Source of the DNA: a virus
Lineage: Duplodnaviria; Caudoviricetes
Strand: one strand, 5' to 3'
DNA length: 43,753 nt
IMG/VR virus record: IMGVR_UViG_3300010362_000038
Span: 1 to 43,753 of that record
Shown: positions 5,766 to 37,088 of the stretch, piece by piece
Layout of the letters: every line of letters begins with the position of its first letter
Numbering within the stretch: the stretch's first letter is position 1
Program-made: the position numbers and the translations under genes
Notes under the pieces: generated by a model
Seen by the model: only the letters and a program-made list of their open reading frames with translations
Told to the model about the DNA's origin: nothing
The model's database searches: none

Positions 5766-6724
5766 ACTCGCCATTCATTGAGGGAACAAACTTCCAGTGG
5801 GCTTGGGACTCAACCTCCTTGGGTTGGCTCAAGGAATGTCCCCGCAAGTACCAATATCATATGATCGAGGGCTATTCCGGCCGCGGCGAGTCTGTCCACC
5901 TTGAATTTGGTATCCTCTATCATAGTGCCCTTGAACAATATGAATGTCTCAAAGCTCAGGATTTATCCCACGACGAGGCGATTACAGTAGTTGTCAAAGA
6001 GCTTCTTAAAAATACGTGGCGCGATGGTAAGCCCTGGCGCGCAGCAAAGGACCTCTCAAGCGATGATCGAGCCTCTGTCAAGAACCGTGAGAACCTTATC
6101 CGCAGCGTCATTTGGTATCTCGACAAGTTCGAACAGGACCCTGCGCAAACACGCTTCCATCCGACCACAGGCAACCCTATGGTCGAGCTTCACTTCCAAT
6201 TTGAGATCGACGCTGGTCTCGATATCGATCACCCTTATACTCTTTGCGGCCACCTTGATCGCGTTGTGGACTTTCAGGATCAGCCCTTCGTCATGGATCG
6301 TAAGACAACTACCAGCACTCTTGGATCATATTATTTCGAACAGTACGATCCCGACAACCAAATCTCCCTCTATACCATTGCCTCCAAAGTCGCCTTTCAT
6401 ACGCCTGTAAATGGTGTCATCATAGACGCAGCACAGATCGCGGTGGGCTTCAGTCGCTTCGTTCGCTCGTTTGTATTCAAAACCCAGGATCAGATTGATG
6501 AGTGGCTCAAAGACCTCAAAATCTGGCTCCGCCAAGCCGCGATCTACGCGGAAGCGAACTACTGGCCCCAAAATGACAAGTCGTGCCACAAGTTTGGTGG
6601 CTGCCCGTTTCGGGAAATCTGCTCCAAATCCCCAGGAGTTCGCGATAAATTCCTCGACAGTGCCTTCGAAAGACGACAGTGGAACCCCTTAGTCCCAAGA
6701 GGCGGAGATGCCAGCGCCACGTAA
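5762..6724 (+). CDS. PD-(D/E)xK exonuclease (RecB/Cas4-like)
   Basis: CPRKY, G.L.H..LE, GHLDRV, MDRKTT, QISLY, C-terminal C..FGGCPF..IC. Confidence 0.88.
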   Translation: MNSPFIEGTNFQWAWDSTSLGWLKECPRKYQYHMIEGYSGRGESVHLEFGILYHSALEQYECLKAQDLSHDEAITVVVKELLKNTWRDGKPWRAAKDLSSDDRASVKNRENLIRSVIWYLDKFEQDPAQTRFHPTTGNPMVELHFQFEIDAGLDIDHPYTLCGHLDRVVDFQDQPFVMDRKTTTSTLGSYYFEQYDPDNQISLYTIASKVAFHTPVNGVIIDAAQIAVGFSRFVRSFVFKTQDQIDEWLKDLKIWLRQAAIYAEANYWPQNDKSCHKFGGCPFREICSKSPGVRDKFLDSAFERRQWNPLVPRGGDASAT

Positions 6725-7001
6725 AATAGACATACAGTTCTTCAAAAGAAGATCAAGAACTGGATTAACAGGTTGCTGGAATTGGACAGGAGCTTCGGCC
6801 GCTGGCTATGGACACATACGAATTAACTATGAGTGTAAGATAGCATCAAGAGTGGCCTATGAAACTCTTATAGGCCCAATTCCGGAAGGATTTATAGTAA
6901 GGCACCTCTGTGATAACAGACTCTGTGTACTATTTCTAAATGAAGGAACTTATACAGACAATCTGTTAGACAGATATCATAGAACACAGAGGAGAAGAAA
7001 T
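6708..7001 (+). CDS. Degenerate HNH endonuclease domain, in frame with the downstream ATPase
   Basis: CWNWTG..GYG..RVAY...GPIPEG..VRHLCDNRLCV; lacks the usual NPxHL segment; no stop before ATG7002. Confidence 0.7.
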
Positions 7002-7799
7002 ATGCCAACTCTAAAACTTCATCAGTCTAGTGAGTATACTAAGCTCTTGCTCATGGGAGATTCTAAATCTGGAAAGACAGGTTCTTTAACAAGTCTTGCT
7101 CTGGCCGGATACAAATTACGAGTATTAGATTACGATAACGGATTAGACTCGCTTGCTCAAGCAATCAGAAGAGCCGATCCAAACAAACTCGAGAATGTAG
7201 AATTCCGTACACTTCGAGATAAATTAAAATCATCTCCTGTCGGAAGTATTGTAGATGGAACACCAACAGCTTTCGTAGATGGTCTGAAGATGTTAGATCA
7301 CTGGAAGTATGCCGATATAGATCTAGGCACTCCTCATACGTGGGGTAAGGACTGCATTCTCGTTCTCGACTCATTGACTTTCATGGCGGATGCTGCGTTT
7401 CGCTTCCGTGAACCCCTGGTCCCTCGTTCGCGAGATGGCAAGTATGATGTCCGCGCAGTTTATAAGGACTCTCAAGACGCAATCGAGAATGTTCTCGCAC
7501 TTCTTACATCCGAAAACTTCCGAACTAATGTTATCGTCATTAGTCATGTCCGCTACGTTGACCTGCCTGATGGCCTTAAGAAAGGGTACCCTACCGCAAT
7601 TGGATCAGCCTTATCTCCTCAAATACCGAGGTATTTTAACAGCGTTGCGCTCGCCCAGACGGGTCCTGGAGGTAAACGGCAAATCCAAACCGCTGCGACG
7701 GCGATGATTGACCTGGCCAATCCGGCCTCGTTCAAGATGCTTCCGACGTTGCCAATTGAGACAGGCCTCGCAACATACTTTGAGACGTTACGCTCATGA
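7002..7799 (+). CDS. AAA_24/Sak4-like P-loop ATPase (ssDNA annealing)
   Basis: KLLLMGDSKSGKT, LDYDNG, LVLDSLT, VIVISH; own AGGAG RBS; lies between exonuclease and SSB. Confidence 0.82.
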   Translation: MPTLKLHQSSEYTKLLLMGDSKSGKTGSLTSLALAGYKLRVLDYDNGLDSLAQAIRRADPNKLENVEFRTLRDKLKSSPVGSIVDGTPTAFVDGLKMLDHWKYADIDLGTPHTWGKDCILVLDSLTFMADAAFRFREPLVPRSRDGKYDVRAVYKDSQDAIENVLALLTSENFRTNVIVISHVRYVDLPDGLKKGYPTAIGSALSPQIPRYFNSVALAQTGPGGKRQIQTAATAMIDLANPASFKMLPTLPIETGLATYFETLRS

Positions 7800-8158
7800 C
7801 ACGAAGGTTTGTAGCGAAACGACGACGTAATTACAGCCTCTCCGTAGAAAGGCTAAGAGATATCATGTCTTACGATCCGTGCTCTGGAAAATTATTCTGG
7901 AGAGAAACCGGCAGAGAAGCTGGATATAAAACGAATGGCTACTTGTATATTCAAGTAGAAGGTAGAGGCTATCGAGCACATCGACTCGGATGGTTCTACG
8001 CTTATGGAGAGTGGCCAAATGTTTTAGATCATTTAGACGAGGACAAATCCAATAACAGTCTTTGGAACCTCATCGATGGAACGCATCTCGATAACGCGAG
8101 ACGCTATCACGGGCGTCGAAGACCGGAACGCCCATGGTTCGAAACCCTCCGGTCATAG
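7796..8158 (+). CDS. HNH homing endonuclease
   Basis: MSYDPCSG..NGY..YRAHRLGWFYAYGEWP..LDHLDEDKSNNSLWNL; paralogue of 4239..4601. Confidence 0.9.
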   Translation: MTRRFVAKRRRNYSLSVERLRDIMSYDPCSGKLFWRETGREAGYKTNGYLYIQVEGRGYRAHRLGWFYAYGEWPNVLDHLDEDKSNNSLWNLIDGTHLDNARRYHGRRRPERPWFETLRS

Positions 8159-8172
8159 AGGAGTCGGCCTAA

Positions 8173-8607
8173 ATGGCACTATCGTTCGAAGAGATCATGC
8201 GACGGCCTGCAAGTGAGTTCAAGCCGCCGGAGGCGTTTCCGGTCGGAACTTACCACTGTCTCGTGGATGGTCCACCAGAGGCGGGAAAGTCCTCGCAGAA
8301 GGGCACCGACTATCTGCGGTTCAAGTTCAAGATACTCAAGCCCTATAAGGGTGTTGATGAAGTGCTCGCGGCCGAACTCCAGGTCGTCGGCAAGCAAATC
8401 CAGAACGACTATTACATCACCGAGGGCGCCACGTACCGACTGACCGATCTCCTCAAGGATGATCTTGGGATCGAGGTCGAGGGTAAACCGATGGATCAGG
8501 CCGTCGCTGAGGCACCAGGCAAACAGCTCCTTGTGACACTGAAGCATGAATTATCCCAAGATGGAAAGCGTACCTTCCATCGGGTAGCATCAACTAGTCA
8601 CGTCTAG
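8173..8607 (+). CDS. Putative ssDNA-binding protein (DUF669-like)
   Basis: P.GTY...V......S.KGT.YL.F.F pattern; follows the Sak4-like gene; GAGGAG RBS. Confidence 0.65.
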   Translation: MALSFEEIMRRPASEFKPPEAFPVGTYHCLVDGPPEAGKSSQKGTDYLRFKFKILKPYKGVDEVLAAELQVVGKQIQNDYYITEGATYRLTDLLKDDLGIEVEGKPMDQAVAEAPGKQLLVTLKHELSQDGKRTFHRVASTSHV

Positions 8608-8636
8608 GTTTTCGACTCCCCTGGCGTGGCGGTTGG

Positions 8637-8679
8637 GGCCGGAGAGGAAATCCACATCTCTTCTGCTACCTCTCCGGCC
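8637..8679 (+). terminator. 11-bp perfect stem-loop after the SSB-like gene
   Basis: GGCCGGAGAGG / CCTCTCCGGCC. Confidence 0.45.
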
Positions 8680-8694
8680 TTAAAGGTCGATCCA

Positions 8695-8916
8695 ATGCCA
8701 ACCTGTAGTGACTGCATCTATGGAATGATAGTTGGCGAAGGAGTTATCATGTGTCGGCGATATCCTCCGCAAGTAACAAAAGTCGAAGGCGCTACTGTAA
8801 CCAGTCATAATCCACTCCTCGCGGAAAGTTGGTGGTGTGGAGAATGGAAGGCACGAGTGAATGGTCCATATCAACCGCAAAGCGGTAAAGCCATATCCAG
8901 AAAGGCAAAACGATGA
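8695..8916 (+). CDS. Small Cys-rich phage protein
   Basis: CSDC...CRRYPP...WCGEW motif. Confidence 0.75.
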   Translation: MPTCSDCIYGMIVGEGVIMCRRYPPQVTKVEGATVTSHNPLLAESWWCGEWKARVNGPYQPQSGKAISRKAKR

Positions 8917-9311
8917 ACCTCAAGAACCTCAGACCAGTTCCAGCAGCTCTAGTTTCGCCACCCCCAACAATCGAACAGGAGATTGGCTCACTGATCCCAG
9001 CCGACTTCGTTCCGCCCAAGGACCGCACTGAACAAATAGGGAGGCTAACCTTGAATGCAATCGATAGTTTCGCCGAGCTTCCCACCAAGGAACTCGACGA
9101 TCTAATCCTCGGAGTCGAGGACAAGATCATCAAAATAAAAGAAAAAGCCAACGCTATCAAATCCGAGTACGCAGCACGTACCACCGAACTTAAAGCCGCT
9201 GTCGAGCGACTCAATGAGGCATGTCGCAAGAGCGAGGCCAAAATGGAGGAGTTGCACTTGCAACTCAACGAGATCTACGCGCCAAAAGCATCGAGGGAGC
9301 CTCAGACGTGA
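8913..9311 (+). CDS. Hypothetical coiled-coil protein
   Basis: ATGA overlap; heptad-like C-terminal half. Confidence 0.7.
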   Translation: MNLKNLRPVPAALVSPPPTIEQEIGSLIPADFVPPKDRTEQIGRLTLNAIDSFAELPTKELDDLILGVEDKIIKIKEKANAIKSEYAARTTELKAAVERLNEACRKSEAKMEELHLQLNEIYAPKASREPQT

Positions 9312-10603
9312 CCTCAGGTCACTTCCATACCATCCCTATCGATAGTATCTCTGTCGATAGGGAGGGTCGTCAGCGGCGCGATCTCGAGAAGATCGACGTG
9401 CTGGCGGACTCCATCCATCGCCTCGGTCTCATCCACCCTATCGTCATCACTCGCAGCCATGAGCTTGTTGCTGGTGAGCGCCGTCATGCAGCCTGTCGTT
9501 CGTTGGGATGGACCGCTATTCCAGCCCAATACACTGATGAACTCGATGAAGCACAATTACACGCTATCGAACTCGAAGAGAATATCAAGCGACTCGACAT
9601 CTCGTGGAAAGATCAAGTAATGGCCGTCCGCGAGTATCATGCCCTTCGTAAACTGCCGGACCCAGAATGGACACAGACAGACACGGCCAAGGCCATTGGT
9701 CTCTCACAACAGCATATTGGCGAGATGATTCAGATTGCTGAGGAACTCATCGCCGGTAACAAGATGGTCTCTGAGGCACCAAAGCTATCCGTTGCCCGTG
9801 GCCTTGTACGTCGCGCAATCGAGCGTCAAGATCAACAGACTATAGATACATTTCACTCGGAATATCTGAAGGGTCCAGTTGAGGCACCGCCACCAGAAAG
9901 TATTCTCATCAGTGATTTTACAGAGTGGGTCCTTGGCCCGAGCCCTGTCAAATTCAACTTTATCCACTGTGATTTCCCCTACGGTATCGAGGCCGATACA
10001 TTCAATCAGGGCTCGGCGCCAGCCTTCGGCGGCTATGTTGACACTAGGGAAACATGGGAAAAACTCATGTTTGCCCTAGAAATAGCCATGCGAGACCATA
10101 TAGCGCCAAGCGCCCATCTTATGTTCTGGTTCTCGATGCGCAAGGGCAATGAGCGTCTCTACGAGCCTACGGCCCGTCATCTCGAAGTGCTGGGCTGGGA
10201 TATCAATCCACTCCCATTGATATGGATGAAAACTGATGGCGTTGGCATCCTTCCTGATCCAGAGCGTGGACCTCGACAAATCTATGAGACGTGCCTCCTT
10301 GGATCGCGCGGAGACCGTAAAATTGTTAGAGCGGTTGCTAATGCTTATGGCGCGCCTTCGAGCCGAGAACAGCATATGTCTGAAAAACCCGAGCCAATGC
10401 TGCGCCACTTCTTCGGGATGCTTGTTGACCAAAACACCATTATGCTTGACCCCACCTGTGGAAGTGGAAGTTCGCTGCGAGCGGCTGAGTCTCTTGGTGC
10501 TAAATACACTTTGGGCCTGGAGATTAACCAGAGCTTCGCGACGCTTGCGCAGGAAGCCCTCAAAAGAGCCCGCAATCTGAGGAAAGCAACGGAGGCTACC
10601 TAA
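9308..10603 (+). CDS. ParB/Srx-domain + beta-class N6A/N4C DNA methyltransferase fusion
   Basis: GLIHPIVI..LVAGERR..A, ELEENIKR, HTH; then CDFPYG, H.SEKP, LDPTCGSGSS; likely GTG start at 9308. Confidence 0.85.
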   Translation: MTSGHFHTIPIDSISVDREGRQRRDLEKIDVLADSIHRLGLIHPIVITRSHELVAGERRHAACRSLGWTAIPAQYTDELDEAQLHAIELEENIKRLDISWKDQVMAVREYHALRKLPDPEWTQTDTAKAIGLSQQHIGEMIQIAEELIAGNKMVSEAPKLSVARGLVRRAIERQDQQTIDTFHSEYLKGPVEAPPPESILISDFTEWVLGPSPVKFNFIHCDFPYGIEADTFNQGSAPAFGGYVDTRETWEKLMFALEIAMRDHIAPSAHLMFWFSMRKGNERLYEPTARHLEVLGWDINPLPLIWMKTDGVGILPDPERGPRQIYETCLLGSRGDRKIVRAVANAYGAPSSREQHMSEKPEPMLRHFFGMLVDQNTIMLDPTCGSGSSLRAAESLGAKYTLGLEINQSFATLAQEALKRARNLRKATEAT

Positions 10604-10885: not shown

Positions 10886-11055
10886 TGGAGCACTGGGTCC
10901 TAATCATCCAGCTCACTGGCGGCGCCATCATCCCCATTCAGGACTTCTTCAGCGAGAAAGAGTGTCTGGCCGTTCTCCAGGAATACAAGTTCTATGAGGA
11001 GGGCGTTCGCGGCGGCTGTGCCCTTTTGAAGGAGGGTAAGAAGAAGCGAAAATAG
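10885..11055 (+). CDS. Small hypothetical protein (56 aa)
   Basis: AAGGAGG RBS, TAATG coupling; MEHWVLIIQLTGG...FFSEKECL. Confidence 0.65.
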   Translation: MEHWVLIIQLTGGAIIPIQDFFSEKECLAVLQEYKFYEEGVRGGCALLKEGKKKRK

Positions 11056-11067
11056 GGAGTGCACCGA

Positions 11068-11496
11068 ATGTCAGACGATGATGACAATGAACGAGGCGCA
11101 TTTGCCCGTAACGAGGACCCTCTCAGCTCTCACATCGCTGCCGATCTTGTAGACTTTCCAAAACTAGAGAGTATAGTTTTGGCGTGTCTTAGAGATAAAG
11201 GTCCACAATCACAGTGTGAGGTAGCAGTGGCAACTGGTATACGTGATGGATCTATAACCCCACGTTTCAAGCGTCTTGAGGCAAAGGGACTCATTGTTCG
11301 TCAGATAGATGAACATGGCTGCATAATCCACAGAAAAAGCCTATACTCTAACCGACCAGTCGAGGTCTGGGCCTTAAAATATGGTCCTCTCCTCTGGTCT
11401 CAAAAGGAGGATCTCAAAGAACTCGATCTCTGGGACCTTAAAATCCTCGGGCTCGAAGGAGAAAATGACCAGCCAACAGACACTCATGAAAAATAA
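11068..11496 (+). CDS. Winged-helix DNA-binding protein
   Basis: AR..DP.SSH.AA leader, then VLACL...SQCEVA..TGI...SITPRFK.LE.KGLI. Confidence 0.75.
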   Translation: MSDDDDNERGAFARNEDPLSSHIAADLVDFPKLESIVLACLRDKGPQSQCEVAVATGIRDGSITPRFKRLEAKGLIVRQIDEHGCIIHRKSLYSNRPVEVWALKYGPLLWSQKEDLKELDLWDLKILGLEGENDQPTDTHEK

Positions 11497-12511
11497 AATC
11501 GCAATAGTCGGCGAGGCCTGGGGCGAGCACGAAGAACGTGAGCGTATGCCCTTTGTCGGCCCCGCCGGATGGCAGCTAAACACCTTACTCAAGGAGGCCG
11601 GAATTGTTCGTCATGAATGCTTCCTCACCAATTGTTTCAATCTTCGCCCAAAGCCCACGAACAAGATCGATAACCTTTGTGCCTCGCGAAAGGAGGTCCG
11701 TCATGCGCTCCCGCCGTTATCATCTGGCAAGTACATCCGTGATGAATTTCTCCCTGAACTCGACAGACTTTATAGGGAACTTAATGAAGTTAATCCAAAT
11801 GTCATTATCTGCCTCGGGGGAACTGCCGCCTGGGCAATATTACGTGACGGTAGAATATCGAAACTTCGTGGGGCAGTCGCAAGTTCCCCCATACTGGAGG
11901 GACGAAAAGTCCTCCCAACCTTCCATCCCTCCTATATCCTCCAAGGAAACTACGAGTCCAGATACGTCACGATCCTCGACCTCCAAAAAGCCAGGCGAGA
12001 GTCAGAGTATCCCGAGATTAGGCGACCACGACGCACCATCTACACAGCACCAAGTCTCAACGAGCTTGAGTGGTTCCTCGACACCCACATCCGGCCCGCT
12101 AGTCGACTCGCTGTTGACATCGAGACAAGAGCCGACCGCATTACTTGCATCGGCTTCGCGCCTGGACCACAAATAGCTCTTGTGGTCCCATTCGAGGACC
12201 TTCGCCAGGGCGGAAACTATTGGCCCACTATCGAAGCCGAACTTTCGGCCTGGCGTTGGGTGCGCCGAGTCCTAGATATGGCTAGTCCAACAAAAATTTT
12301 TCAGAACGGCATCTTCGACATGACAAGATTATGGAAAACTTACGGAATTCCGGTTAGAAATGCTGAGCATGATACCATGTTACTTCATCATGCTCTTATG
12401 CCTGAGAGTCCAAAGGGGCTCGACTATCTTGGTTCCATCTACACTGACGAGGCCGCGTGGAAACTTGGCATTCGCCTGAAGCACAAGGGCACCATCAAGA
12501 AGGAGGACTGA
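11465..12511 (+). CDS. Uracil-DNA glycosylase-like domain + N-terminal part of 3'-5' exonuclease (DNA polymerase N-terminal subunit)
   Basis: IVGEAWG..E...PFVGPAG, LTN, ICLGG, TFHPSYIL (family 4 UDG fold); AVDIET (ExoI), QNGIFD (ExoII), HDTMLL. Confidence 0.88.
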   Translation: MTSQQTLMKNKIAIVGEAWGEHEERERMPFVGPAGWQLNTLLKEAGIVRHECFLTNCFNLRPKPTNKIDNLCASRKEVRHALPPLSSGKYIRDEFLPELDRLYRELNEVNPNVIICLGGTAAWAILRDGRISKLRGAVASSPILEGRKVLPTFHPSYILQGNYESRYVTILDLQKARRESEYPEIRRPRRTIYTAPSLNELEWFLDTHIRPASRLAVDIETRADRITCIGFAPGPQIALVVPFEDLRQGGNYWPTIEAELSAWRWVRRVLDMASPTKIFQNGIFDMTRLWKTYGIPVRNAEHDTMLLHHALMPESPKGLDYLGSIYTDEAAWKLGIRLKHKGTIKKED

Positions 12512-12512
12512 T

Positions 12513-12668
12513 ATGGAACTCGAAAAGACAACTGTTGAACTCTATGTCCGCGACGTGGAGTGGCTCAAAAGTCAGTATGGAGCAAAGTGGGCTGATTACA
12601 TCAAGGAGCTTCTCAAGCTCCACATCGATCAGCTCCTCACAATCGAGCGCTGGAAGCGAGAACTCTAA
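12513..12668 (+). CDS. Small RHH-like protein (paralogue of 5371..5580)
   Basis: AGGAGG RBS; MELEKTTVELYVRDVEWLKSQYGAKWADYIKELLKLHI. Confidence 0.65.
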   Translation: MELEKTTVELYVRDVEWLKSQYGAKWADYIKELLKLHIDQLLTIERWKREL

Positions 12669-12988
12669 TGGTCCTCCCTCTCGGCACGGCTATCGCCGCA
12701 GGCTTAACCGAGTCCGCTCTCGCAGAGGGCGCAGCCTTGGAACTCCCAATGGTCAAAGCTCTTGCCACAGCCCTTGGCCCGGAGGGTAAGGAGACACCGA
12801 CCGAGGTCACGGTCCCAGTACAGTCCAGTTTTATCCGGGCCATCGGCTATCGTGTCGGAGGCATAATAACTGTGGAAATGAAACGTGGAGGCAGCGGCAC
12901 CTACGAATACCCAGGCACGGAGGAAGAATTCCTCGCCTTCGTTATGGCTCCCTCGAAAGGAGAGTGGTTCAATGCCCATCTTAAATGA
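12668..12988 (+). CDS. KTSC-domain protein
   Basis: VQSSFIRAIGY...VEMK.G..YEY.G....F..F..APSKG.WFN. Confidence 0.88.
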   Translation: MVLPLGTAIAAGLTESALAEGAALELPMVKALATALGPEGKETPTEVTVPVQSSFIRAIGYRVGGIITVEMKRGGSGTYEYPGTEEEFLAFVMAPSKGEWFNAHLK

Positions 12989-13112
12989 CACTGAGCTTAT
13001 CGAGCACCTCCGACGCGCCGCCTCGATCTGGTTCAAGAACGAAGACCTCCTCATGCTTGAGGAGTTGATCCGCCGATATCATAATCTCGAGAGACAAGTA
13101 AAATGCAAATAG
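12972..13112 (+). CDS. Small hypothetical protein
   Basis: AAGGAG RBS; MPILNDTELIEHLRR. Confidence 0.6.
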   Translation: MPILNDTELIEHLRRAASIWFKNEDLLMLEELIRRYHNLERQVKCK

Positions 13113-13534
13113 TTCTTACAAAAGGATATATAGCTCATGTTGATCCTGAAGATTATGAGCGAATAAACAAATTCAAGTGGTGTGCCAATGTAAGATATAA
13201 CGGGTATGTCAGAGCTGCGAGGATGAAAGATAGAAGAATAATCTATATGCACCACGAAGTTCTCGGAGTAGACTCAAGAGAACTGAACAACATGGAGGTA
13301 GATCATATTGATAGAGACCCTCTTAACAACAGACGAAATAATTTAAGAATTGTAACTCATGCAGAAAATGGAAGAAACACGCTAAGACATAAGAACAGGA
13401 TAGGATATACCTATAATAGAAGAGCAAGTTTGTGGATGGTGTATCTCGATAATCCAGGAAGGCCGCGCAGATACTTAGGATATACCAAAACAAGAGCTGA
13501 GGCCGAGGAGAAAATTAGAGAGGCTCGATTGTGA
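13103..13534 (+). CDS. HNH endonuclease with AP2-like C-terminal domain
   Basis: LTKG..A.VD.EDY, YMHH, VDHIDRDPLNNRRNNLR.VT..EN..N, YLG...T..EA. Confidence 0.9.
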   Translation: MQIVLTKGYIAHVDPEDYERINKFKWCANVRYNGYVRAARMKDRRIIYMHHEVLGVDSRELNNMEVDHIDRDPLNNRRNNLRIVTHAENGRNTLRHKNRIGYTYNRRASLWMVYLDNPGRPRRYLGYTKTRAEAEEKIREARL

Positions 13535-15114
13535 AAGTTTATCAAACAGATATGCTTAAACCAAATGAACCGAAATCAGAAACGGAACGATTATGGATCT
13601 ATAATGGTTTAGATTGCTGCGTAACCTACGAGGTTCTCGATGCGATCCTTCCACAGCTCGATAATCTCACTAGCTCCACATACGCTCTTTCACGGGCTCT
13701 TCAGGGCCCTGTAATGGAAATGAACCTCCGGGGAGTCTTGGTTGATGAGCGAGAAAGACAAAAGGCCGTTTCTAACTATCGTGCCGACATCGAACGACTC
13801 GAAGCCCAGCTCTACCGTATCGTACACGAGGGGCTCAACTTCACCCAGTTCTGTAACAGCGCTAAAACAAAAGCTTGGCGATCCAACAACCTTGTCGCGT
13901 CTTTGCTCTACGATATCCTTAGACTTCCTGAAATACGTAAACGTAATGAAAGAGGTGAAATGGCCCGAACTGTCAATAGAGATGCACTTGAGCGGCTCCA
14001 ACTCCACTTCATTGCAAGACCAATTATTTCTCACATACTTGCTCTGCGAGATTTTGGAAAGAAAGTCGGTGTCCTTGAAACAGAGATTGACAAAGATGGC
14101 AGGCTCCGAACTTCCTACAACATCGCTGGAACTACAACAGGCCGCTTTTCAAGCTCTCTCAATGACTTCGGAACTGGCGGCAATCTACAAAATATTGAAG
14201 AGCGCCTACGACGCATCTTTATCTCCGATCCCGGCATGAAGTTCGCCAATATCGATCTCGAACAGGCAGACAGCCGCAATATAGGAGCATTGTGCTGGAA
14301 TGTTCTCCGCGACCCCCGATATCTCGACGCTTGTGAGTCAGGTGACCTCCACACTTCGGTCGCTAGGATGTCAAACCCAATGCTGGGATGGACGGGTGAT
14401 CTCAAGAAAGATCGAGGAATCGCCGAACAACCCTACTACCGTCACCATAGTCTTCGCCATGTGTGTAAAGTGCTCGGGCACGGTACAAATTACCTTGGAA
14501 CTCCCTACGAAATGTCCAAGCATACAAAAATCGAATCCTCCCTAATCAAGGACTTCCAGTCCCTATACTTCTCCACGTTCCCTGCAATCCCCCGCCTCCA
14601 CGAGTGGGTACAACAGCAAATCCTTGAGCATGGTCACCTTGTAACGCCCTTTGGGCGTAAGCGTTGGTTCTTTGGTCGCCGGGACGACCGAGATACCCTC
14701 AAACAGGCAGTCGCCCACATGGGCCAGTCAATGACTGCTGACGAGATGAATAACGCTATGCTGGCGCTATGGCGACTCCACATCGTGGAGTTTCTTCTAC
14801 AGGGCCACGACTCAATACTAATACAGTATCCCGAGGAGAAAGAGAATGAGATCATCCCGCAGGTTACTTCTGCAATGCGAGTTCCCTTGGAACTTGAGGG
14901 TGGCCGTCAATTTATAGTTCCGGTTGAAGTTCAAGTGGGCTGGAATTGGTCAAAAGCAACTCAGGATAATCCGAATGGTCTCTCAAAATGGCCTGACAGC
15001 CGAAAAAAGACAGAGACTAACGATCGAACAGAGGCCCTCTCAGCAAGACAAAAAGCTTTAGAGGAACTGCTGAATGATCGAGGGGCAGCAAAGAAGACTG
15101 GGATCGTGGATTGA
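13531..15114 (+). CDS. polA: Family A DNA polymerase, C-terminal (ExoIII + polymerase) subunit
   Basis: YNGLD (ExoIII), GTTTGRFSS, NLQNI, motif A DLEQADSR, motif B RHVCKVLGHGTNY, TPFGRKR, motif C GHDS. Confidence 0.93.
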   Translation: MKVYQTDMLKPNEPKSETERLWIYNGLDCCVTYEVLDAILPQLDNLTSSTYALSRALQGPVMEMNLRGVLVDERERQKAVSNYRADIERLEAQLYRIVHEGLNFTQFCNSAKTKAWRSNNLVASLLYDILRLPEIRKRNERGEMARTVNRDALERLQLHFIARPIISHILALRDFGKKVGVLETEIDKDGRLRTSYNIAGTTTGRFSSSLNDFGTGGNLQNIEERLRRIFISDPGMKFANIDLEQADSRNIGALCWNVLRDPRYLDACESGDLHTSVARMSNPMLGWTGDLKKDRGIAEQPYYRHHSLRHVCKVLGHGTNYLGTPYEMSKHTKIESSLIKDFQSLYFSTFPAIPRLHEWVQQQILEHGHLVTPFGRKRWFFGRRDDRDTLKQAVAHMGQSMTADEMNNAMLALWRLHIVEFLLQGHDSILIQYPEEKENEIIPQVTSAMRVPLELEGGRQFIVPVEVQVGWNWSKATQDNPNGLSKWPDSRKKTETNDRTEALSARQKALEELLNDRGAAKKTGIVD

Positions 15115-16303
15115 CTCCTATATAGAGTATACAGAAATCACACCATCCCCGCCTATATTCCGAAAGTGGGTCGCGATTTCCTTCGTCGCGGCTGCCATGG
15201 AGCGCAAAGTCTGGATCAGGACAATGGGAACATCCCTGTATCCTGGTCTATTTACCATTCTTGTAGGCCCTCCAGGCATTGGTAAGGGCCAGGCCATCCA
15301 TCTAGGTGAGCTTATCCTCCGTTCCGTGCCCGAACTCCACATTGGCCCCTCTGACATGACCGCCGCCAGCATGATCGATGCCCTCAATGAGTCGGCACGT
15401 CAGATAGTTCTCATGGGCGATCCACCTATTATCGAGTTTAATTCCCTCACTGTCATTTCCCGCGAACTCGGAGTGCTTATTCCCGCGTGGGATGCAGCCT
15501 TCATGAACAATCTCACCGATATCTACGATGGCTTCACAGTCGACCAGAAGCGTCGCGGCAAGGAACTCCACATCAAGATAGCCAATCCCCAAATAAATTT
15601 ATTAGGTGCTTGCACCCCTGGATACCTCAGCCAGATCATGCCAGCAAGCGCGTGGGACCAGGGCTTTATATCCAGGACCATCTTGGTCTTTTCAGGTCAG
15701 CGGACTACCAAGGACCCCTTCGTGGACGAGCAAGCACTCTTGGCCTCCACTCGACTCCACAACGATCTACTCCATGACCTCAAGAGCATTGGTACCACTA
15801 TCGGCGCCATGTCCTTCACCACTCCAGCCGCGGCGGCTATCAAGGCCTGGATAAGGGACGGCTGCAAACCCGAGCCCGCTCATCCAAAGCTCCAGTTCTA
15901 CAATTCCCGGCGCATAGCACACCTACTCAAACTCTGTATGATCGCCAGCGCATCCCGCAAGGACGACAAGATCATTGCCCTTGAACACTACACCGAGGCC
16001 CTCGACTGGCTCATCGAGGCCGAGCGTTATATGCCCGATATCTTCAAGTCGATGGTCAGTGGCGGTGACTCGGCCGCGATGGAGGAGGCCTGGAACTTTG
16101 TGTGGACGCTTTATTCCAAAGAGAAAAAACCCATCGCAGAACATCGTGTCGTCCACTTCCTCCGCGAGCGCCTTCCAGCTCACTCGATAATGAAAGTCAT
16201 CGAGGTGATGGTCAAATCAAAGATGCTCGAAATATCAATCGGCGAGACAGGCTTCAATGGCTACAAACCCGCCACGAAAGAGGCCAGAATGGAGGGTCTC
16301 TAG
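15074..16303 (+). CDS. DUF3987-type P-loop NTPase, putative replicative helicase
   Basis: LVGPPGIGKG Walker A, NLLGACTP, GFISR; directly follows the polymerase. Confidence 0.75.
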   Translation: MIEGQQRRLGSWIDSYIEYTEITPSPPIFRKWVAISFVAAAMERKVWIRTMGTSLYPGLFTILVGPPGIGKGQAIHLGELILRSVPELHIGPSDMTAASMIDALNESARQIVLMGDPPIIEFNSLTVISRELGVLIPAWDAAFMNNLTDIYDGFTVDQKRRGKELHIKIANPQINLLGACTPGYLSQIMPASAWDQGFISRTILVFSGQRTTKDPFVDEQALLASTRLHNDLLHDLKSIGTTIGAMSFTTPAAAAIKAWIRDGCKPEPAHPKLQFYNSRRIAHLLKLCMIASASRKDDKIIALEHYTEALDWLIEAERYMPDIFKSMVSGGDSAAMEEAWNFVWTLYSKEKKPIAEHRVVHFLRERLPAHSIMKVIEVMVKSKMLEISIGETGFNGYKPATKEARMEGL

Positions 16304-29312: not shown

Positions 29313-31347
29313 TTCGCCCTCCTGCGCCATTCTGTCGCTGTTGTCGCATAGTCAACTCGTGCTTCTGTTGAGTGTGCATCATCTGCTGTGCATTCTTGGC
29401 CGCGTTCATAGCGAGGCCCATATTGGCCTTCTGCTGATCGGCCCTCAACTTCGAGGCCTGTGTAGCCGCCCCAATCTGGGCCTTCACCACATCGCCCTGG
29501 ACCTTCGCAGCCGTTTCAGCCTGCTTCATCTGATGCTGCTGCACAGCCATAGCCGAGTCCATCCGCCTCTCGATGATCCCGTGCGCGCCGCCCTGGGCCG
29601 TTTCGACAGCTTTGGCCTGATTGAGCTGGGCCTTCGACTGCGACTCAGCTACCTTCGCTTGTGCGGCCTGAAGTTCGAGCGCCTGCGTCTGCATCTGGAT
29701 CGGATTTGGTGCCTCAAGTATCCCCAACAGCTTCTTCTTAACACTCGCCTGCAGCGGAGCCAGCTCCAGCAGGATCTGAGGTGGAATATTGGCCCCCTGG
29801 GCCGTGAGCGCCACGAGTGTGTCGTAGGCATCGGCCATCATGTTCACTTCATCTGGACCTTCATCCAGCATGAAGTTCACGTCCAGCTGTCCTACCGCAT
29901 TTATCATCCTCGGCAAGCCTGTGCGCGGATCAATTCCCACTCCGTTTAACATAACAGCCTGCGGCAAGCCCTCCGAGTCGGTGACCCTGATCCACCGCTC
30001 CGCAGTCCAGTACCGCTGCACCGCAGCCCAAATCGCCCGATAAATCCTGAGCTTCCAATTCTTCACTCCGATCACAAACGGCCCCAGCTCGGCAAACCCC
30101 GCCTGCTGGAGCAGGTTTATTGCCCTCCCAGATTTATATTCGAGCCCCTGCCCTATCAGGGCCGGATTTGGTCCAAAGTTCTCAATCTCAGCTTTGGCGT
30201 CCTCAAGGAACTTCAACTGGCCTTCGACGTTGGCGATCCTTGCCTGATCGTCGAACTCCATCTCGAAGCCCTTGTTGTAGATAACAACGCCATCTGGCCG
30301 TACAGCTTCACGTCGTGCAATCTCGATGTCGCTAAAAGCACCGTCCTCAGCTTTGATCCGCCTCGAATTAAGTTCATGAAGTCCTTTTGAACGTCGCTGG
30401 TTAATCTCATCTTGAGACGATCGAAGATTCCTAACGAAGCCATAGCGATCTCCCTCGTGATCCACAAAACTTGAGAACATAATATACTTGCAGATCGGGT
30501 TCCCGGCCTCATCGTAGAACAGACTCTTTCCCTCCATAAGGATTGCAGATCCAGTGAAGATGGTATAGCACCATCCGCCCCTGTGCTTGTAATAGATATC
30601 CACTACCCTTACCCGCTTGTAGTCCGGGTTTACATCGAACCAGCGCTTTTCCCTGTCCGGGTTAGAAGTCAAGTCCGAGCCGCGCTCCAACGAGGCCTCA
30701 AGGATATCTGCACTATCCGGGAACAGGTTCTGCGCATCCTCAAGATCAAGCCACTTTCCTTGCCCCATGTATCGAGCATCACTGAAGTCGTGCATATACG
30801 AGCGTGGATCGTAGAAGAAACTATCACCGATGACCAGGGCAAAACCGATCTCATTGTCTCCTACATCACCTTGTTCCAGTGTTAACTCGATTCCACCATA
30901 ACCGTCAACGGCGGCCTGATCGATCGCGAAGGGGAACAAGTCGCTCCTCAACTCCGACTCCACTACATATCGCACCACACTCGTCGCCAGCTCGGCCGCG
31001 TTTTCGTCTGTAGTTCGCGGATTTCGTGGATAGGCTTTTGGGTCCTGTTTCTGTCTCTCCATCAGCCCAATCACTGAGTCGATCTTCCGCCCAATCCGAT
31101 TATATGTCACTACAGGCTGTCGTCGCCTATTGAACGTCTCCACTTGACCAGTAGTCCACTGTGCCCCATGCCTATAGGCCCTCGCATTCTGCTGTTCCTC
31201 GATCTCGAGCCGCTTCGATCCCACGTAGTCCATATACGCTCGTTTACACTTTGCAAGCGACCAATAACCCTGATCCTCATCGTCAGCCGAGGAGGTCATC
31301 CTGTTGGGCGGAATAACTGACGAAGAGTAGCCTGGATTTATCGCCAT
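29287..31347 (-). CDS. Portal protein (P22-like)
   Basis: G.QW, P.VT.N.I..K, RYG.VR.L.S.QDE.N.R.SK, SGRAI..QQ, C-terminal Gln/Ala barrel helix. Confidence 0.9.
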   Translation of the reverse strand: MAINPGYSSSVIPPNRMTSSADDEDQGYWSLAKCKRAYMDYVGSKRLEIEEQQNARAYRHGAQWTTGQVETFNRRRQPVVTYNRIGRKIDSVIGLMERQKQDPKAYPRNPRTTDENAAELATSVVRYVVESELRSDLFPFAIDQAAVDGYGGIELTLEQGDVGDNEIGFALVIGDSFFYDPRSYMHDFSDARYMGQGKWLDLEDAQNLFPDSADILEASLERGSDLTSNPDREKRWFDVNPDYKRVRVVDIYYKHRGGWCYTIFTGSAILMEGKSLFYDEAGNPICKYIMFSSFVDHEGDRYGFVRNLRSSQDEINQRRSKGLHELNSRRIKAEDGAFSDIEIARREAVRPDGVVIYNKGFEMEFDDQARIANVEGQLKFLEDAKAEIENFGPNPALIGQGLEYKSGRAINLLQQAGFAELGPFVIGVKNWKLRIYRAIWAAVQRYWTAERWIRVTDSEGLPQAVMLNGVGIDPRTGLPRMINAVGQLDVNFMLDEGPDEVNMMADAYDTLVALTAQGANIPPQILLELAPLQASVKKKLLGILEAPNPIQMQTQALELQAAQAKVAESQSKAQLNQAKAVETAQGGAHGIIERRMDSAMAVQQHQMKQAETAAKVQGDVVKAQIGAATQASKLRADQQKANMGLAMNAAKNAQQMMHTQQKHELTMRQQRQNGAGGRNATNQKSK

Positions 31348-34300
31348 CTTCGCGTTCCCATAACCAGTCGGCCCTGGCGTCCTTTAGATGCTCTAATTCC
31401 ATAATCAGAGTCCAGACTTCTTCCAATCGGGAAGTCGTAGAATATCACCTCAGCCCTCGGGAATGGAGCAGGGAATGCCTCCATTCGGCCATTACCAAAG
31501 AAGTTGGCTCCAACCACCATATTCAGATTGGCATATGGTAGTAATCCACCCTGGCCACTGAAGGTAGCCTGCATCGTTATCAGTGCTGCAGGCCTTATAC
31601 TGATATCAGCACTAAGCGCCCCAAGACCGCTAAAGCGGCTGTCAACCTTCATCTTCAGGTTGGCATACGGGCTGAGTCCACCTAAACCACCATAGGTAGC
31701 TTGCACACTCAATCTGAAGGTTGACAGTGCACTCAGTACACCAATGCCGCCGAAGGTTGCCTGCGCGGCCATCTTCGCCACTGTCGCGGCACTCAGTGTC
31801 CCAGTGCCCGCGAACGTGGCCTGTGCAGTGAATACATTCGCTCCAGTGACGCGAAGGGCATCACCACTCAGCGCGCCAACACCGTTGAAGGTGGCATTGA
31901 CCACCATCGACAGGTTGGCAAGTGTCGATAGCCCGCCAGCGCCACTAAATGTAGCAGAAGCAACTAGATTGTTAACTATAAGGGCACTCAGTGTACCTGA
32001 GCCATTAAACGTGGCCCTTGCAACGACCCCCAGGAAACCGGCAGCACTGAGTGATCCGGCCCCCTGGAAGGTCGCGGCGGCAGGCATCCGCAGGAACGGT
32101 GCGGCGGACAGTCCGCTCGATCCAGCGAGAGTGGCTGCTACAGTATTAACCAGCGAAGCGGAGGCACTCAATCCACCAGCGCCGTTGAACGTGGCCTGAA
32201 GTGGAACCGCAGCACCGACCTTCGTCAGATCGGCCGCCATGCCGCCAGTGCCATTATAGGTCACTGAGACCGACATTGCCAGGTTGGCGAGTGCACTGAG
32301 CGTACTTCCACCAACAAGGGTCGCCGTCGCTGATAGACTGAGCTGCGATACAGCACTCAGTGATCCGGCCCCGCCGAAGGTGGCTTGAGCCGTCATCACC
32401 TGCACTGAAGTAGCACTCAGCGATCCCGAACCCTGGAATGTCGCCGCCACACCGCGCACGGCCTGGGCATCAGCACTCAGCGACCCGGTCCCGCTGAAGA
32501 TCGCCGATATCGAGTGCTTTTGAGATAGCGTCGCACTCAGTGATCCAGTCCCATCGAACTCCACACTCACTGGCATCAACAGCCGTGAGAGAACAGACAG
32601 TGAACCCGCTCCAGCGAGGCTCGCGGAAACCGTCGCAAGCAGGTTCACTGTTGCTGACAGGCCACTACCGCCGGTGAGGTTGGCCTGGGCAGCCATAATA
32701 GCCGTTGTGGCCGCACTCAATCCGCCTGCACCCTGGAAGGTAGCCTGTGCAGTCCAGTTGGTAATTACCCCTGGAATAAACGCGTCGCCGCTCAGTGAGC
32801 CCACACCATTGAAAGTTGCCCTAACGGGCATAAGTAACTGAGGCTGTACACTCAGCGTACTGGAACCATTCAAAGTAGCCGCGGCCGGTCGAGAAATTCT
32901 TCCATCAGCACTCAGGCTACCAACGCCATCGAACTCTGCATCGGTATCCATCCGTAGATTTGCGGTGACCTGTATCGAGCCTGTGCCACCAAAAGTGGCC
33001 CTCGCGAACCAGAATACATCCGAGTCGGCGCTCAGGCTGCCAGCACCCTGGAATGTTGCCGCCACGCTGAAAGTCATATTCGGCGAGGCACTCAGCCCGC
33101 CTACGCCACTAAATGTGGCCCTCGAAGTCAGAATTAAATCGCCGTCCGCACTGAGTGTACCAGACCCGTTTAATGTTGCCTGTGCTGTCCAGGTTGTCGT
33201 TCCGACAACCCTCAAAGCATCACCACTCAGCGAACCAGCGCCCGCAAAGGTTGCCTGCGCGAAGATCACTCTCATCGCAGCGGCGCTCATAGAGCCCGCA
33301 CCCGCGAAGGTGGCCGCCACGACCATCTTCTGATCGAGATCAGCACTCAGCGCGCCCGCGCCTGGCAGAGTTGCTTGTGCCGTGGCGGGCTTCAGATTGG
33401 CACTGACCGACAGTGTGCTGGCTCCGGACAGGGTGCCCTGCACTGCCATCTTCATCCCGGCCGAGCCAGACAACGCTCCGACACCACTGTATGTCGATTG
33501 TGCAGTTATCGGAACTGCGGCGCCCGAATAGGTAAGAACGAGGATACCACCGCCAGCGCTGCCAGCCGTGCGCGTGCTGCCAGTATTGCGCATACCGCCA
33601 CTGGAGCCACCGCCGCCACCATAGCTACCGCCGTTGCCGCCCGTCGTAGTGGCTGCAGTATTGTTGGAGTTGCCACCCGCCCCGCCGCCTCCACCACCAG
33701 CACCTGCTGAGGTGCCGTCGTTTGGACCACCACTGTTATCGGTCCAGTCAGTTGCATTGCCGAGTGAACCACCCGCACCAGCGGTCGAGCCTACACCAGC
33801 CGTCGAGGAGCCGTTGCCGCCGCCGCCACCACTACCATCCGCACCAGCGCCGCCAGTTGCGCCTCCAGCGCCACCAGCTGTGCCAGCCGTATTGGCACCG
33901 CCTGCGCCACCTGTCGTGCTCGCGCCCGCGCTTGAACCGGCAGTAGACGATCCGCCATCCGAGCCACCACCGCCACCACCACCGCTCGGGCCGGTAGTGC
34001 CGCCCGCTCCACCAGCCTTGCCAGTGCCATCTGGTCCGCCAGAGCCGCCACCAGCACCACCACCTGTGCCGCCACCGGCAGAGGCACCACCAGAGGTACC
34101 CCCAGCGTTGCTCGTGGTTACGGTATAAGTGACTCCTGGTGAGCCAACATTCGACGCACTAGCGCCGCCGATGCCGCCACCGAATGACGGGCTGCCGATG
34201 GCCGTGCCGCCACACTGCACTTCATTGCCGTTGGCTGCGCCGGTGCCAGAGGCCGGTGCTTCTTGCCAAATGGTGCTGTCGCTGGTGGTGGCGTTAGGGT

Positions 34301-34553
34301 TGTTGGTAGTGGCGTTATGCGAGCCAACGCGGAATGGCGTTGTTGAGCCTACCGCACCCGAACTATAGGTGAACTTGCCATAGGCTCCAGCGCCACCACC
34401 TCCAGGACCGCGCCCACTGGTGCCGGTCGATCCGAGTGCGCCGTCGCCGCCGCAGCCAATACCCTCGACCGTATGTCCAGCATCTGCCCAGTCGCCGGGA
34501 CGGGAAAATGGCGAGGTTGCAGCACTGGTAATCAATACGATCTTAGTTGTCAC
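31338..34553 (-). CDS. Large fibre-like protein: Gly-rich N-domain + ~33 tandem ~21-aa repeats
   Basis: 1071 aa; repeat core AT(F/L)xGxGxLSA. Confidence 0.8.
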   Translation of the reverse strand: MTTKIVLITSAATSPFSRPGDWADAGHTVEGIGCGGDGALGSTGTSGRGPGGGGAGAYGKFTYSSGAVGSTTPFRVGSHNATTNNPNATTSDSTIWQEAPASGTGAANGNEVQCGGTAIGSPSFGGGIGGASASNVGSPGVTYTVTTSNAGGTSGGASAGGGTGGGAGGGSGGPDGTGKAGGAGGTTGPSGGGGGGGSDGGSSTAGSSAGASTTGGAGGANTAGTAGGAGGATGGAGADGSGGGGGNGSSTAGVGSTAGAGGSLGNATDWTDNSGGPNDGTSAGAGGGGGGAGGNSNNTAATTTGGNGGSYGGGGGSSGGMRNTGSTRTAGSAGGGILVLTYSGAAVPITAQSTYSGVGALSGSAGMKMAVQGTLSGASTLSVSANLKPATAQATLPGAGALSADLDQKMVVAATFAGAGSMSAAAMRVIFAQATFAGAGSLSGDALRVVGTTTWTAQATLNGSGTLSADGDLILTSRATFSGVGGLSASPNMTFSVAATFQGAGSLSADSDVFWFARATFGGTGSIQVTANLRMDTDAEFDGVGSLSADGRISRPAAATLNGSSTLSVQPQLLMPVRATFNGVGSLSGDAFIPGVITNWTAQATFQGAGGLSAATTAIMAAQANLTGGSGLSATVNLLATVSASLAGAGSLSVLSRLLMPVSVEFDGTGSLSATLSQKHSISAIFSGTGSLSADAQAVRGVAATFQGSGSLSATSVQVMTAQATFGGAGSLSAVSQLSLSATATLVGGSTLSALANLAMSVSVTYNGTGGMAADLTKVGAAVPLQATFNGAGGLSASASLVNTVAATLAGSSGLSAAPFLRMPAAATFQGAGSLSAAGFLGVVARATFNGSGTLSALIVNNLVASATFSGAGGLSTLANLSMVVNATFNGVGALSGDALRVTGANVFTAQATFAGTGTLSAATVAKMAAQATFGGIGVLSALSTFRLSVQATYGGLGGLSPYANLKMKVDSRFSGLGALSADISIRPAALITMQATFSGQGGLLPYANLNMVVGANFFGNGRMEAFPAPFPRAEVIFYDFPIGRSLDSDYGIRASKGRQGRLVMGTRRWR
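31470..33510 (-). repeat. Coding tandem repeat array (~33 units)
   Basis: Counted by eye in the translation; recurrent GCACTCAG/GCACTGAG on the + strand; boundaries approximate. Confidence 0.85.
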
Positions 34554-35349: not shown

Positions 35350-36222
35350 CTAGTTAACCTGAAGCTCCATCGGACTTAGAAAGGACCCGGGAGAAATGAT
35401 AAGTGTATCTCCAGATCCAACTGTGTTTACCGTACCCCACAACTCGGAAACCTTCTCTCTCCTTGCGAACATCAAGTTTATATGCATCTGTTCGCCTGGT
35501 TTCCGCCGCGATACATTACAGTTAAGCCGCGAGCCTTGGTCGACTAGCATAGGACAGCCTGGCTGTAGTATAAAACTATCGTATCCAAATATAGTCATGA
35601 ATTCTCTGATCTGCTTCTCAGAAATATTCAAATGCTGCATCAACATGAAGTTGAATTCCACTATCATACACTCAAGTCTCTGCGCAGCCAATAACTGCCT
35701 CGATCCATTCAAAATATCTGGCTCCGATCCCTCGCAATCCAGCTTAATCAACTTGGGCTTCAATGAAACGAAGGTATCCAGAGAATAAGAGGGCACTAAA
35801 ATCGGCGGGGCTGAGTTATCATACTGGACCACCACGGAGGAACTTGCTCCGTATCCGGGTACTGCACAAAAATTGATCTCGGAGTCCTCCTTCCACAGTG
35901 CTCCCGGCACAGCCGCCACGTTCTTTGCGTCATTCAACTCCAAACTCGCAATGAGATACTCATAATTGTCTGGATCGGGCTCGAATGCCAAAACATGACC
36001 CTCTGGCCCTACAAACTTCGACATTATCATCGAAGTGAGTCCCCAATTGGCTCCTCCATCGATGGCGCAGTCTCCAGGCTGCAAAAAGCGGCTCATAGCA
36101 TCGACAATATCTAATTCTATCACAACCCCATGCACCATCCTGTAGGTCGGATGCGTAGCGAGCCGGAATTCCAGCTCTTTTCCGTTAATATTCATCCCTA
36201 CAGTCACAGCGCCGTTAATCAT
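35350..36222 (-). CDS. FkbM-family (Methyltransf_21) SAM methyltransferase
   Basis: IDGGANWG, VLAFEPDP, LIKLDCEGSE..IL.G. Confidence 0.9.
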   Translation of the reverse strand: MINGAVTVGMNINGKELEFRLATHPTYRMVHGVVIELDIVDAMSRFLQPGDCAIDGGANWGLTSMIMSKFVGPEGHVLAFEPDPDNYEYLIASLELNDAKNVAAVPGALWKEDSEINFCAVPGYGASSSVVVQYDNSAPPILVPSYSLDTFVSLKPKLIKLDCEGSEPDILNGSRQLLAAQRLECMIVEFNFMLMQHLNISEKQIREFMTIFGYDSFILQPGCPMLVDQGSRLNCNVSRRKPGEQMHINLMFARREKVSELWGTVNTVGSGDTLIISPGSFLSPMELQVN

Positions 36223-36989
36223 CTTGCCACTCCCTCGTTAAAAGTGGCTCTAACTCGAGCCGCGATCTCCGGACAACTCTTTGCGAAGCCCTCCCAGATA
36301 TATTTGTTCGATCCAGCGGCGTAACTGCTCTCAGCCAGCAGTTTTGCCCTCGTTAGAAGACGATCTTCGTCTCCCTGACATCCATAATCGAAGTTATAGG
36401 CCGCATGGAAGCCGAAATGTCGGCCCTTCGGGTCTGGTCGAGTGGTTTCGAAGGCAAAGTGGATTGCGAGTGACTCTGGAGCCCACCTAAAACCCGCCCC
36501 CTCAAGCGTAATTCGATATTGTCTACACAAAAGATCATCATCGAGATCGGTAATGCAGGGAAATTGGGCCCTATTGGCCCTCAGAAATCGCATCAGCGTC
36601 GTACTTCGAAGGCAAAAGCCCCCGTTTCCGACGTTTTTTCCGTCTTTGTACCACCAGGGAGCCCCAACATAGTCGTATTCAAGAAACTCCGGCCGCCAAG
36701 CCCCTGGATCGACCACCCAACTGTCCCACTGAATGCCAAGGGCATGGGAAGTTGCCATAAAAGGGGCCACTCCCTGCCAAAAATGCCTCGACCACCCCAT
36801 CTTAGTGGGCCAGTCTTCGACCGCGTAGACACGCCTGTCGGCCCGCATAAACTGACTTGGATGATTAGTAAACACTAAAACATCGCCGAAGCGACAAAGT
36901 CGCTCGCAATCTTCGAGCGCGAGCCGAGCAAGCTCATGCTGACGGGTCTCAATCAACACTAAAGTAACATCTGGTAACTCCAGCATCAT
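36219..36989 (-). CDS. DUF5672-family glycosyltransferase-like protein
   Basis: L.L.DVTLV, IQWD.WV, FLEYDYVGAPW, VGNGGFCLRS, FGFH. Confidence 0.82.
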   Translation of the reverse strand: MMLELPDVTLVLIETRQHELARLALEDCERLCRFGDVLVFTNHPSQFMRADRRVYAVEDWPTKMGWSRHFWQGVAPFMATSHALGIQWDSWVVDPGAWRPEFLEYDYVGAPWWYKDGKNVGNGGFCLRSTTLMRFLRANRAQFPCITDLDDDLLCRQYRITLEGAGFRWAPESLAIHFAFETTRPDPKGRHFGFHAAYNFDYGCQGDEDRLLTRAKLLAESSYAAGSNKYIWEGFAKSCPEIAARVRATFNEGVAR

Positions 36990-37088
36990 TCCCTCCAGAA
37001 CCACCAGCGCTCGCGTTCTCTATCGTTATGTCTTAGGGCGATGCGCTCGGCGTCCCTTTTTGTACAATCACTACAGACGACCTCAGAC

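Follow-up and report, generated by a model that had tools for sequence, protein, structure and literature searches.

How a DNA polymerase might proofread when its exonuclease active site is encoded by two separate genes is the question raised by a stretch of 43,753 nucleotides (nt) of tailed-phage DNA (IMG/VR record IMGVR_UViG_3300010362_000038; hereafter the window). A family A DNA polymerase (PolA) carrying an N-terminal uracil-DNA glycosylase (UDG) domain is here divided inside its 3'-5' exonuclease domain. The first gene (N) ends after the exonuclease motifs ExoI and ExoII, and the second gene (C) carries ExoIII and the polymerase domain. An initial annotation had proposed this division, and the open reading frames (ORFs), stops and motifs were indeed found at the positions claimed, with Pfam in agreement. 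The two gene products are likely to form a non-covalent heterodimer that assembles its proofreading site in trans, a reading to which we assign a probability of about 0.82 on the strength of sequence conservation, structural models and analogy with other split enzymes.

The split is a real and conserved lineage trait. Relatives were collected by searches of viral and genome contigs, one of which confirmed 586 of 599 stretches and covered 44 of the 64 parts of the collection. In a first set of 69 distinct junctions, the polymerase is split at this place in 62 and fused in seven. The widened set comprised 194 loci with both parts nearly whole, which at 85% identity came down to 105 representatives, and the survey of fused versus split relatives that had been suggested alongside the initial annotation could thus be made: 75 representatives have this cut, 29 are fused and one is cut after ExoIII. 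The last of these (L256), together with a probable frameshift (L230), was excluded from the split count. Seventy-two representatives constitute the main split clade, within which identity falls to 31-32%. The same split is present in the cultured Caulobacter phage Kuura, where two ORFs occupy the spacer and the first gene is annotated as hypothetical; this phage plaques at high titre, and passages of its description mention just "a DNA polymerase" (PMC9959647). Both halves occur in 245 of 257 loci with a match, the other 12, with one half each, ending at a contig edge; wherever the contig is long enough, the halves are co-directional neighbors. Divergence of the two halves is correlated in split relatives (Spearman 0.84) as it is in fused ones (0.83). 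Among longer relatives no fused form exceeds 41% identity (best 120 of 303), whereas near-length protein relatives of the N gene (best 120) span 267-378 amino acids (aa) at 58-100% identity. Breaks at other places were also seen: L256 (1657-4361; MW202554) is a UDG-PolA that belongs to the same broader family and has a second break point after ExoIII, and in L233 and L004 interruptions lie deeper within the polymerase domain.

Counted by alignment column over the 105 representatives, D218, E220 and D285 of the first gene and Y24 and D28 of the second are invariant in all 75 split forms. A pattern search placed ExoIII in the second gene for 98 of 100 junction types, and for none did it occur within the final 60 aa of the first; the two misses are L082, which has YNCLD at this position, and the frameshifted L202. 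DEDDy nucleases require all four acids for two-metal catalysis, and this need, taken with invariant residues on both chains, argues that the site is assembled in trans. Both halves would be translated from one operon, the first chain contributing three acidic residues and the second the ExoIII Tyr and Asp, with the ExoIII helix packed against the exonuclease core in the manner of the fused enzyme.

On the N protein, Pfam detected UDG (PF03167) at residues 10-163 (E 1e-21) and DNA_pol_A_exo1 (PF01612) at residues 214-326. The stop, domains and motifs first annotated for this gene stand, but translation more likely begins at ATG 11486 (341 aa) than at 11465 (348 aa), since 341 aa is the length of the called gene and of most close relatives. 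A profile search with the UDG domain matched TmUDG and TthUDG (E 5e-31 to 2e-28), and across the main clade E17, N56 and H154 are kept in 70, 70 and 71 of the 72 representatives, respectively. The KCRP-motif Cys of solved family-4 UDGs, an iron-sulfur ligand, is Leu in the window. The E and H of the UDG motifs are named as catalytic in a study of UDG-PolAs (PMC13697223). As its motifs are kept, the domain is predicted to be an active glycosylase.

The C protein has motifs A, B and C, and a DNA_pol_A domain (PF00476) at residues 83-474 scores above the Pfam cut-off; by sequence it thus classifies as a family A DNA polymerase. A structural model of the C half, with a mean predicted local distance difference test score (pLDDT) of 88, matches the KlenTaq/Bst fold and contains a 26-residue helix that begins with ExoIII, while the model of a fused relative matches E. 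coli Pol I/Klenow. Position B3 of motif B (E. coli 762; window 14455-14493) is His in all 72 main-clade representatives and in 27 of 29 fused ones; Phe, Tyr and Leu are the only residues given for this position in passages of PMC10201439 that treat it. His at B3 was considered as a mark specific to split forms and rejected, given its presence in those 27 fused forms. The steric-gate position is Asp, not Glu, in 29 of 72 main-clade representatives, the window phage among them.

Table 1. Features of the divided polymerase locus in window coordinates.
Feature	Position	Strand	Remarks
N-subunit gene: family-4 UDG and ExoI/ExoII part of 3'-5' exonuclease	11465..12511	+	Stop TGA at 12509-12511
Family-4 UDG domain (predicted)	11492..11953	+	GE motif E17, E23, F30, N56 and HP motif H154 retained
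ExoI, DIET, D218-x-E220	12116..12124	+	Invariant in 75/75 split and 29/29 fused representatives
ExoII, NGIFD, N281-x-x-F-D285	12305..12319	+	D285 in 75/75 split representatives
AAGGAGG Shine-Dalgarno sequence	12500..12506	+	Inside KKED tail of N gene; serves whichever gene comes next
Cargo ORF, 51 aa, possibly ribbon-helix-helix (RHH)	12513-12668	+	Among clustered spacers, only in the window and L005
Cargo ORF, 106 aa, KTSC domain	12668-12988	+	E 1e-4, under Pfam cut-off here; relatives exceed cut-off
Cargo ORF, 46 aa	12972-13112	+	No family match; homolog in L005
Free-standing HNH endonuclease gene	13103-13534	+	HNH_3, E 9e-10
C-subunit gene: conserved new head (M-K-x-x-x-T), ExoIII helix, whole PolA polymerase domain	13531..15114	+	GTG start overlaps HNH stop
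ExoIII, Y24-N-G-L-D28	13600..13614	+	Y24 and D28 in 75/75 split and 29/29 fused representatives
Polymerase motifs A (D242), B (R309, K313, H317 at B3, Y321) and C (D427)	14254..14811	+	From sequence and column counts

Profile-profile alignment equates the N half with residues 3-319 of the fused protein and the C half with residues 324-779, so that nothing is missing; instead, split forms carry about 24 extra residues as a tail on the first chain and a head on the second. From a conserved WK/YK to the ExoIII Tyr there are some 20 residues in fused forms and some 16 + 23 in split ones. In the AlphaFold model of the fused relative L212 (mean pLDDT 91.4), the sole run below 50 is 315-324, which puts the cut within one poorly ordered segment just ahead of the ExoIII helix; from its low model confidence, this segment is presumably flexible.

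The end of the N gene appears to serve translation as well as protein function. Anti-Shine-Dalgarno duplexes were scored as the fraction at or below -6 kcal/mol, a value attained in 72 of 100 junction types by the 18 nt that precede the N stop, versus 10.7% of 1800 control windows. The start codon of a 30-aa ORF lies at -8..+4 of the N stop in 91 of 100 junction types, versus 1001 of 5000 controls, and the second-last codon is GAG in 26 and GAA in five against a background of 770:664 (L191, with a frameshifted tail, was excluded from codon counts). Together, pairing and codon bias indicate that the KKED end is for the most part a ribosome-binding site, and this would permit translation of any inserted gene. 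By contrast with this codon bias, the tail Arg, the tail Thr-Ile and the head Thr (69/71) are kept while their codons vary freely, indicating selection on the protein at these residues. The tail and head may aid docking of the two chains, by analogy with the tails of the Aeh1 NrdA fragments (PMC3045599).

Among alternatives to the heterodimer, the one that survives best, though improbable, is that the halves act apart or only loosely, N as a repair UDG and C as a non-proofreading polymerase, with regulated association switching fidelity or uracil sensing. The C half alone models confidently and has all polymerase motifs, and genes separated by as much as 2 kb might differ in expression. However, invariant ExoI/ExoII and ExoIII on separate chains are sensible only if the chains meet, the genes remain adjacent and co-directional, and the exonuclease domain is said to be required for PolA stability (PMC10201439). 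Promoter-like sites in the region number six versus 4.0 +/- 2.2 expected, and no terminator-like site was found on the + strand. The suggestion in the initial annotation that a UDG-exonuclease subunit acts as such a switch consequently found no support, the halves being always adjacent on contigs of sufficient length, their co-divergence like that of fused forms and promoters at chance level. Similarly doubtful is the broader idea that the loop before ExoIII is a recurrent break point making proofreading and uracil sensing detachable, with a chain ratio set by the cargo genes tuning mutation rate and uracil tolerance.

Restoration of one chain by RNA splicing (a group I intron with its HNH gene), by protein trans-splicing (a split intein) or by ribosomal frameshifting or bypassing is very unlikely. 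The spacer does hold an HNH gene, introns are present in related polymerase genes (SPO1 gene 31, for example), and a frameshift could join the frames in relatives with an overlap of -1 or -4. Yet no Rfam match was obtained for window positions 11000-15500 at E<=1, nor for six split relatives and one fused relative, a test of limited power given that the SPO1 intron control was itself weak (E 0.018, below gathering). A stronger argument comes from zero-length spacers: seven junction types are spacerless, and the remainder have back-to-back ORFs in all three frames. No Hint or intein family was detected on either protein at E<=0.1, and just the 24 or so residues are added; frameshifting could not cross 1019 nt. 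That intein ends and a group I intron core are lacking, as first noted, was therefore borne out by Pfam and, within its limits, by Rfam; of the two routes originally entertained, assembly in trans is the best inference and splicing fell away. Gene breakage or misassembly, for which metagenomic origin and frameshift errors in a few relatives (L191, L202, probably L230) might be adduced, can practically be dismissed, with the same cut in 75 representatives of many samples and a cultured phage, invariant catalytic residues, and the spacer present in relatives' contigs of another study.

The heterodimer would be UDG-PolA-like in its working, and we read it as descended from fused UDG-PolAs. Trees were built from the C halves (105 rows), from the N halves (58 of these) and, with 114 further fused proteins added, from the C halves again (217 rows, FastTree). 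Each of the three needs three changes, in the main clade (72 rows, support 99-100), in L082 and in L197/L198, and an approximately unbiased (AU) test rejected a single split clade (p 2.6e-6) on a 31-row subset picked after the first tree was known. The three changes are read as three fissions at one loop. Fission, and not fusion, is inferred because L082 and L197/L198 nest among fused rows, and SPO1 and Pol I are single-chain. None of 142 fused rows nests within the main clade, and no re-fused main-clade members were found. L082 and the fused P0025 are 55% and 63% identical, and the gap in L082 holds an HNH gene alone; it looks like a young case resembling endonuclease insertion. The ancestral single chain would have been divided at a flexible surface segment immediately ahead of the ExoIII helix, the probable cause being a free-standing endonuclease gene that inserted there, and the new tail of the N gene would then have acquired a Shine-Dalgarno sequence and so become a ready landing site for cargo genes.

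Several considerations weigh against this account of the enzyme and its origin. Linked neighbors co-occur and co-diverge anyway, so adjacency is no proof of a complex, and binding and activity of the heterodimer are predictions. The last three residues of the tail are partly explained by the Shine-Dalgarno sequence and not by protein function. The trees came from quick or FastTree searches; their branches are long, and they lack an independent root. An endonuclease origin is seen in one small lineage (L082) only, and the main clade could equally have arisen by a simple stop/restart mutation, the origin proposed for the S-SBP1 split (PMC10201439).

The 1019 nt between the N stop and the C start contain four same-strand ORFs whose starts and stops overlap or abut. 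Of the identities initially given to them, KTSC and HNH were supported; the 51-aa ORF has no Pfam match, and Atlas RHH clusters at 0.88 make RHH a lead only, while Pfam did not detect an AP2 part in the HNH gene, where it is discernible by eye only. In the contigs of run X1, possibly the source of the window, the stop and spacer show no differences in records 2 and 6, and record 7 has eight other letters over 2489. The HNH gene is absent from close-relative contigs of two other studies (X2 and X3; joint 13093-13612), and so appears to be an optional passenger here. Across first-set relatives spacer length ranges from -4 to 2083 nt, HNH genes occurring in just four main-clade spacers of that set; in 98 measured junction types the reading frames are distributed 38/35/25, and stop and start overlap in seven. 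Cargo varies by lineage and includes KTSC, DUF7768, DUF1937, a pyrophosphatase, HNH and unknowns, KTSC being the commonest in close relatives (29 loci in the cluster) and lacking from the rest. The spacer of the closest relative (L005, 90% identity; 7418-8983) holds a 522-aa ORF of no known family. A cargo gene as third subunit was ruled out, there being no universal cluster, seven cargo-free junction types and nothing missing compared with fused relatives.

The window is a podophage-type tailed-phage genome of about 44 kb. Genes for a helicase, a PD-(D/E)XK nuclease, a Sak4-like protein, SSB, a ParB-methyltransferase, the polymerase and a primase-like protein lie on the + strand, and those for terminase, portal, capsid, head closure, tail and endolysins on the - strand. 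Upstream of the polymerase, 9221-10603 encodes a fusion of ParB with an N6/N4 methyltransferase, and a methylase or ParB gene is equivalently placed in several fused relatives. The window has at least four HNH genes (4239, 6708, 7796 and 13103), that at 6708-7799 being a single 363-aa ORF with an N-terminal HNH endonuclease and a Sak4-like AAA_24 domain. A DUF7768/nucleoside 2-deoxyribosyltransferase-like gene lies at 1232-1585, and the same family is spacer cargo in eight relatives. On the - strand, a possible virion or DNA glycosylation module with FkbM methyltransferase, DUF5672 and glycosyltransferase family 9 genes separates terminase from portal (35350-38180), and a 1071-aa ORF (31338-34553) immediately upstream of the portal gene is without Pfam or PHROG match. 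Genomes with SPO1-like and SP15-like UDG-PolAs have modified thymine and encode its synthesis; in the window, no match to dUMP hydroxymethylase, dUTPase or thymidylate synthase was found among the window ORFs scanned, many of which are matchless and the short ones of which were only partly included.

If it exists, such a heterodimer would make this a family A replicase that draws its proofreading site from two gene products, unlike the split PolAs checked, which break at domain borders. Literature searches, with subscription papers and supplements outside their coverage, returned no account of a PolA divided between ExoII and ExoIII; this cut is what is new here, split PolAs, single-chain UDG-PolAs and composite-site split enzymes being already known. 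The cut would mark a site that naturally permits division and has apparently served three times; it would be useful for split-polymerase engineering and for the study of gene-fission tolerance, and Kuura, as a cultured carrier, makes it experimentally accessible. It is also an annotation trap: records label the first gene "hypothetical" or "uracil-DNA glycosylase", and the polymerase appears to lack an exonuclease.

In S-SBP1-like T7-like cyanophages, PolA is split by fission into exonuclease and polymerase genes predicted to reassemble (Czernecki et al., 2023; PMC10201439). These phages, S-TIP37, phiEco32 and LUZ24 resemble the window in having a family A polymerase in two genes, and in phiEco32 and LUZ24, as in the window, unrelated genes lie between the halves. 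In S-TIP37 (YCVQD), phiEco32 (YCEQD) and LUZ24 (YCLQD), however, ExoIII is in the exonuclease gene and the cut is at a domain border, whereas that of the window passes through the active site; none of these split forms has a UDG domain and cluster 5 has Tyr at B3, whereas the window has a UDG and His. In the order of its parts, a family-4 UDG followed by a 3'-5' exonuclease and PolA, the window enzyme resembles those of the SPO1-like, SP15-like (YerA41 and phiLo) and N4-like cluster 17 phages. It retains the UDG motifs as in the active SPO1/SP15 types, which are single chains and for which the main text of PMC13697223 has no mention of splitting; the window lineage differs from them in its two genes, His at B3, lack of large inserts and podophage-type genomes of about 44 kb. 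Cluster 17 enzymes have Phe at B3 and a UDG without catalytic residues, whereas the window has His and keeps the UDG motifs.

Other split enzymes are instructive for how such chains may cooperate. Fractured genes of the split-intein type need Hint-domain halves on both fragments (PMC2677866), and the window halves are without them. The split B-family DNA polymerase of PhiKZ was shown at the bench to form a 1:1 complex in which each chain supplies catalytic residues (PMC13648687); like the window enzyme it is a replicative phage polymerase in two genes, but it belongs to family B, is cut in the palm and keeps all four exonuclease acids on one chain. In Aeromonas phage Aeh1, nrdA-a is split from nrdA-b by mobE, and a composite site has been shown at the bench (PMC3045599). 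The window shares with Aeh1 NrdA a gene in two pieces, divided catalytic residues, lack of splicing, new terminal tails and an HNH endonuclease at the cut. The Aeh1 case concerns another enzyme in one phage, whereas the polymerase cut described here is carried by a large, old clade and two further lineages, with many kinds of cargo.

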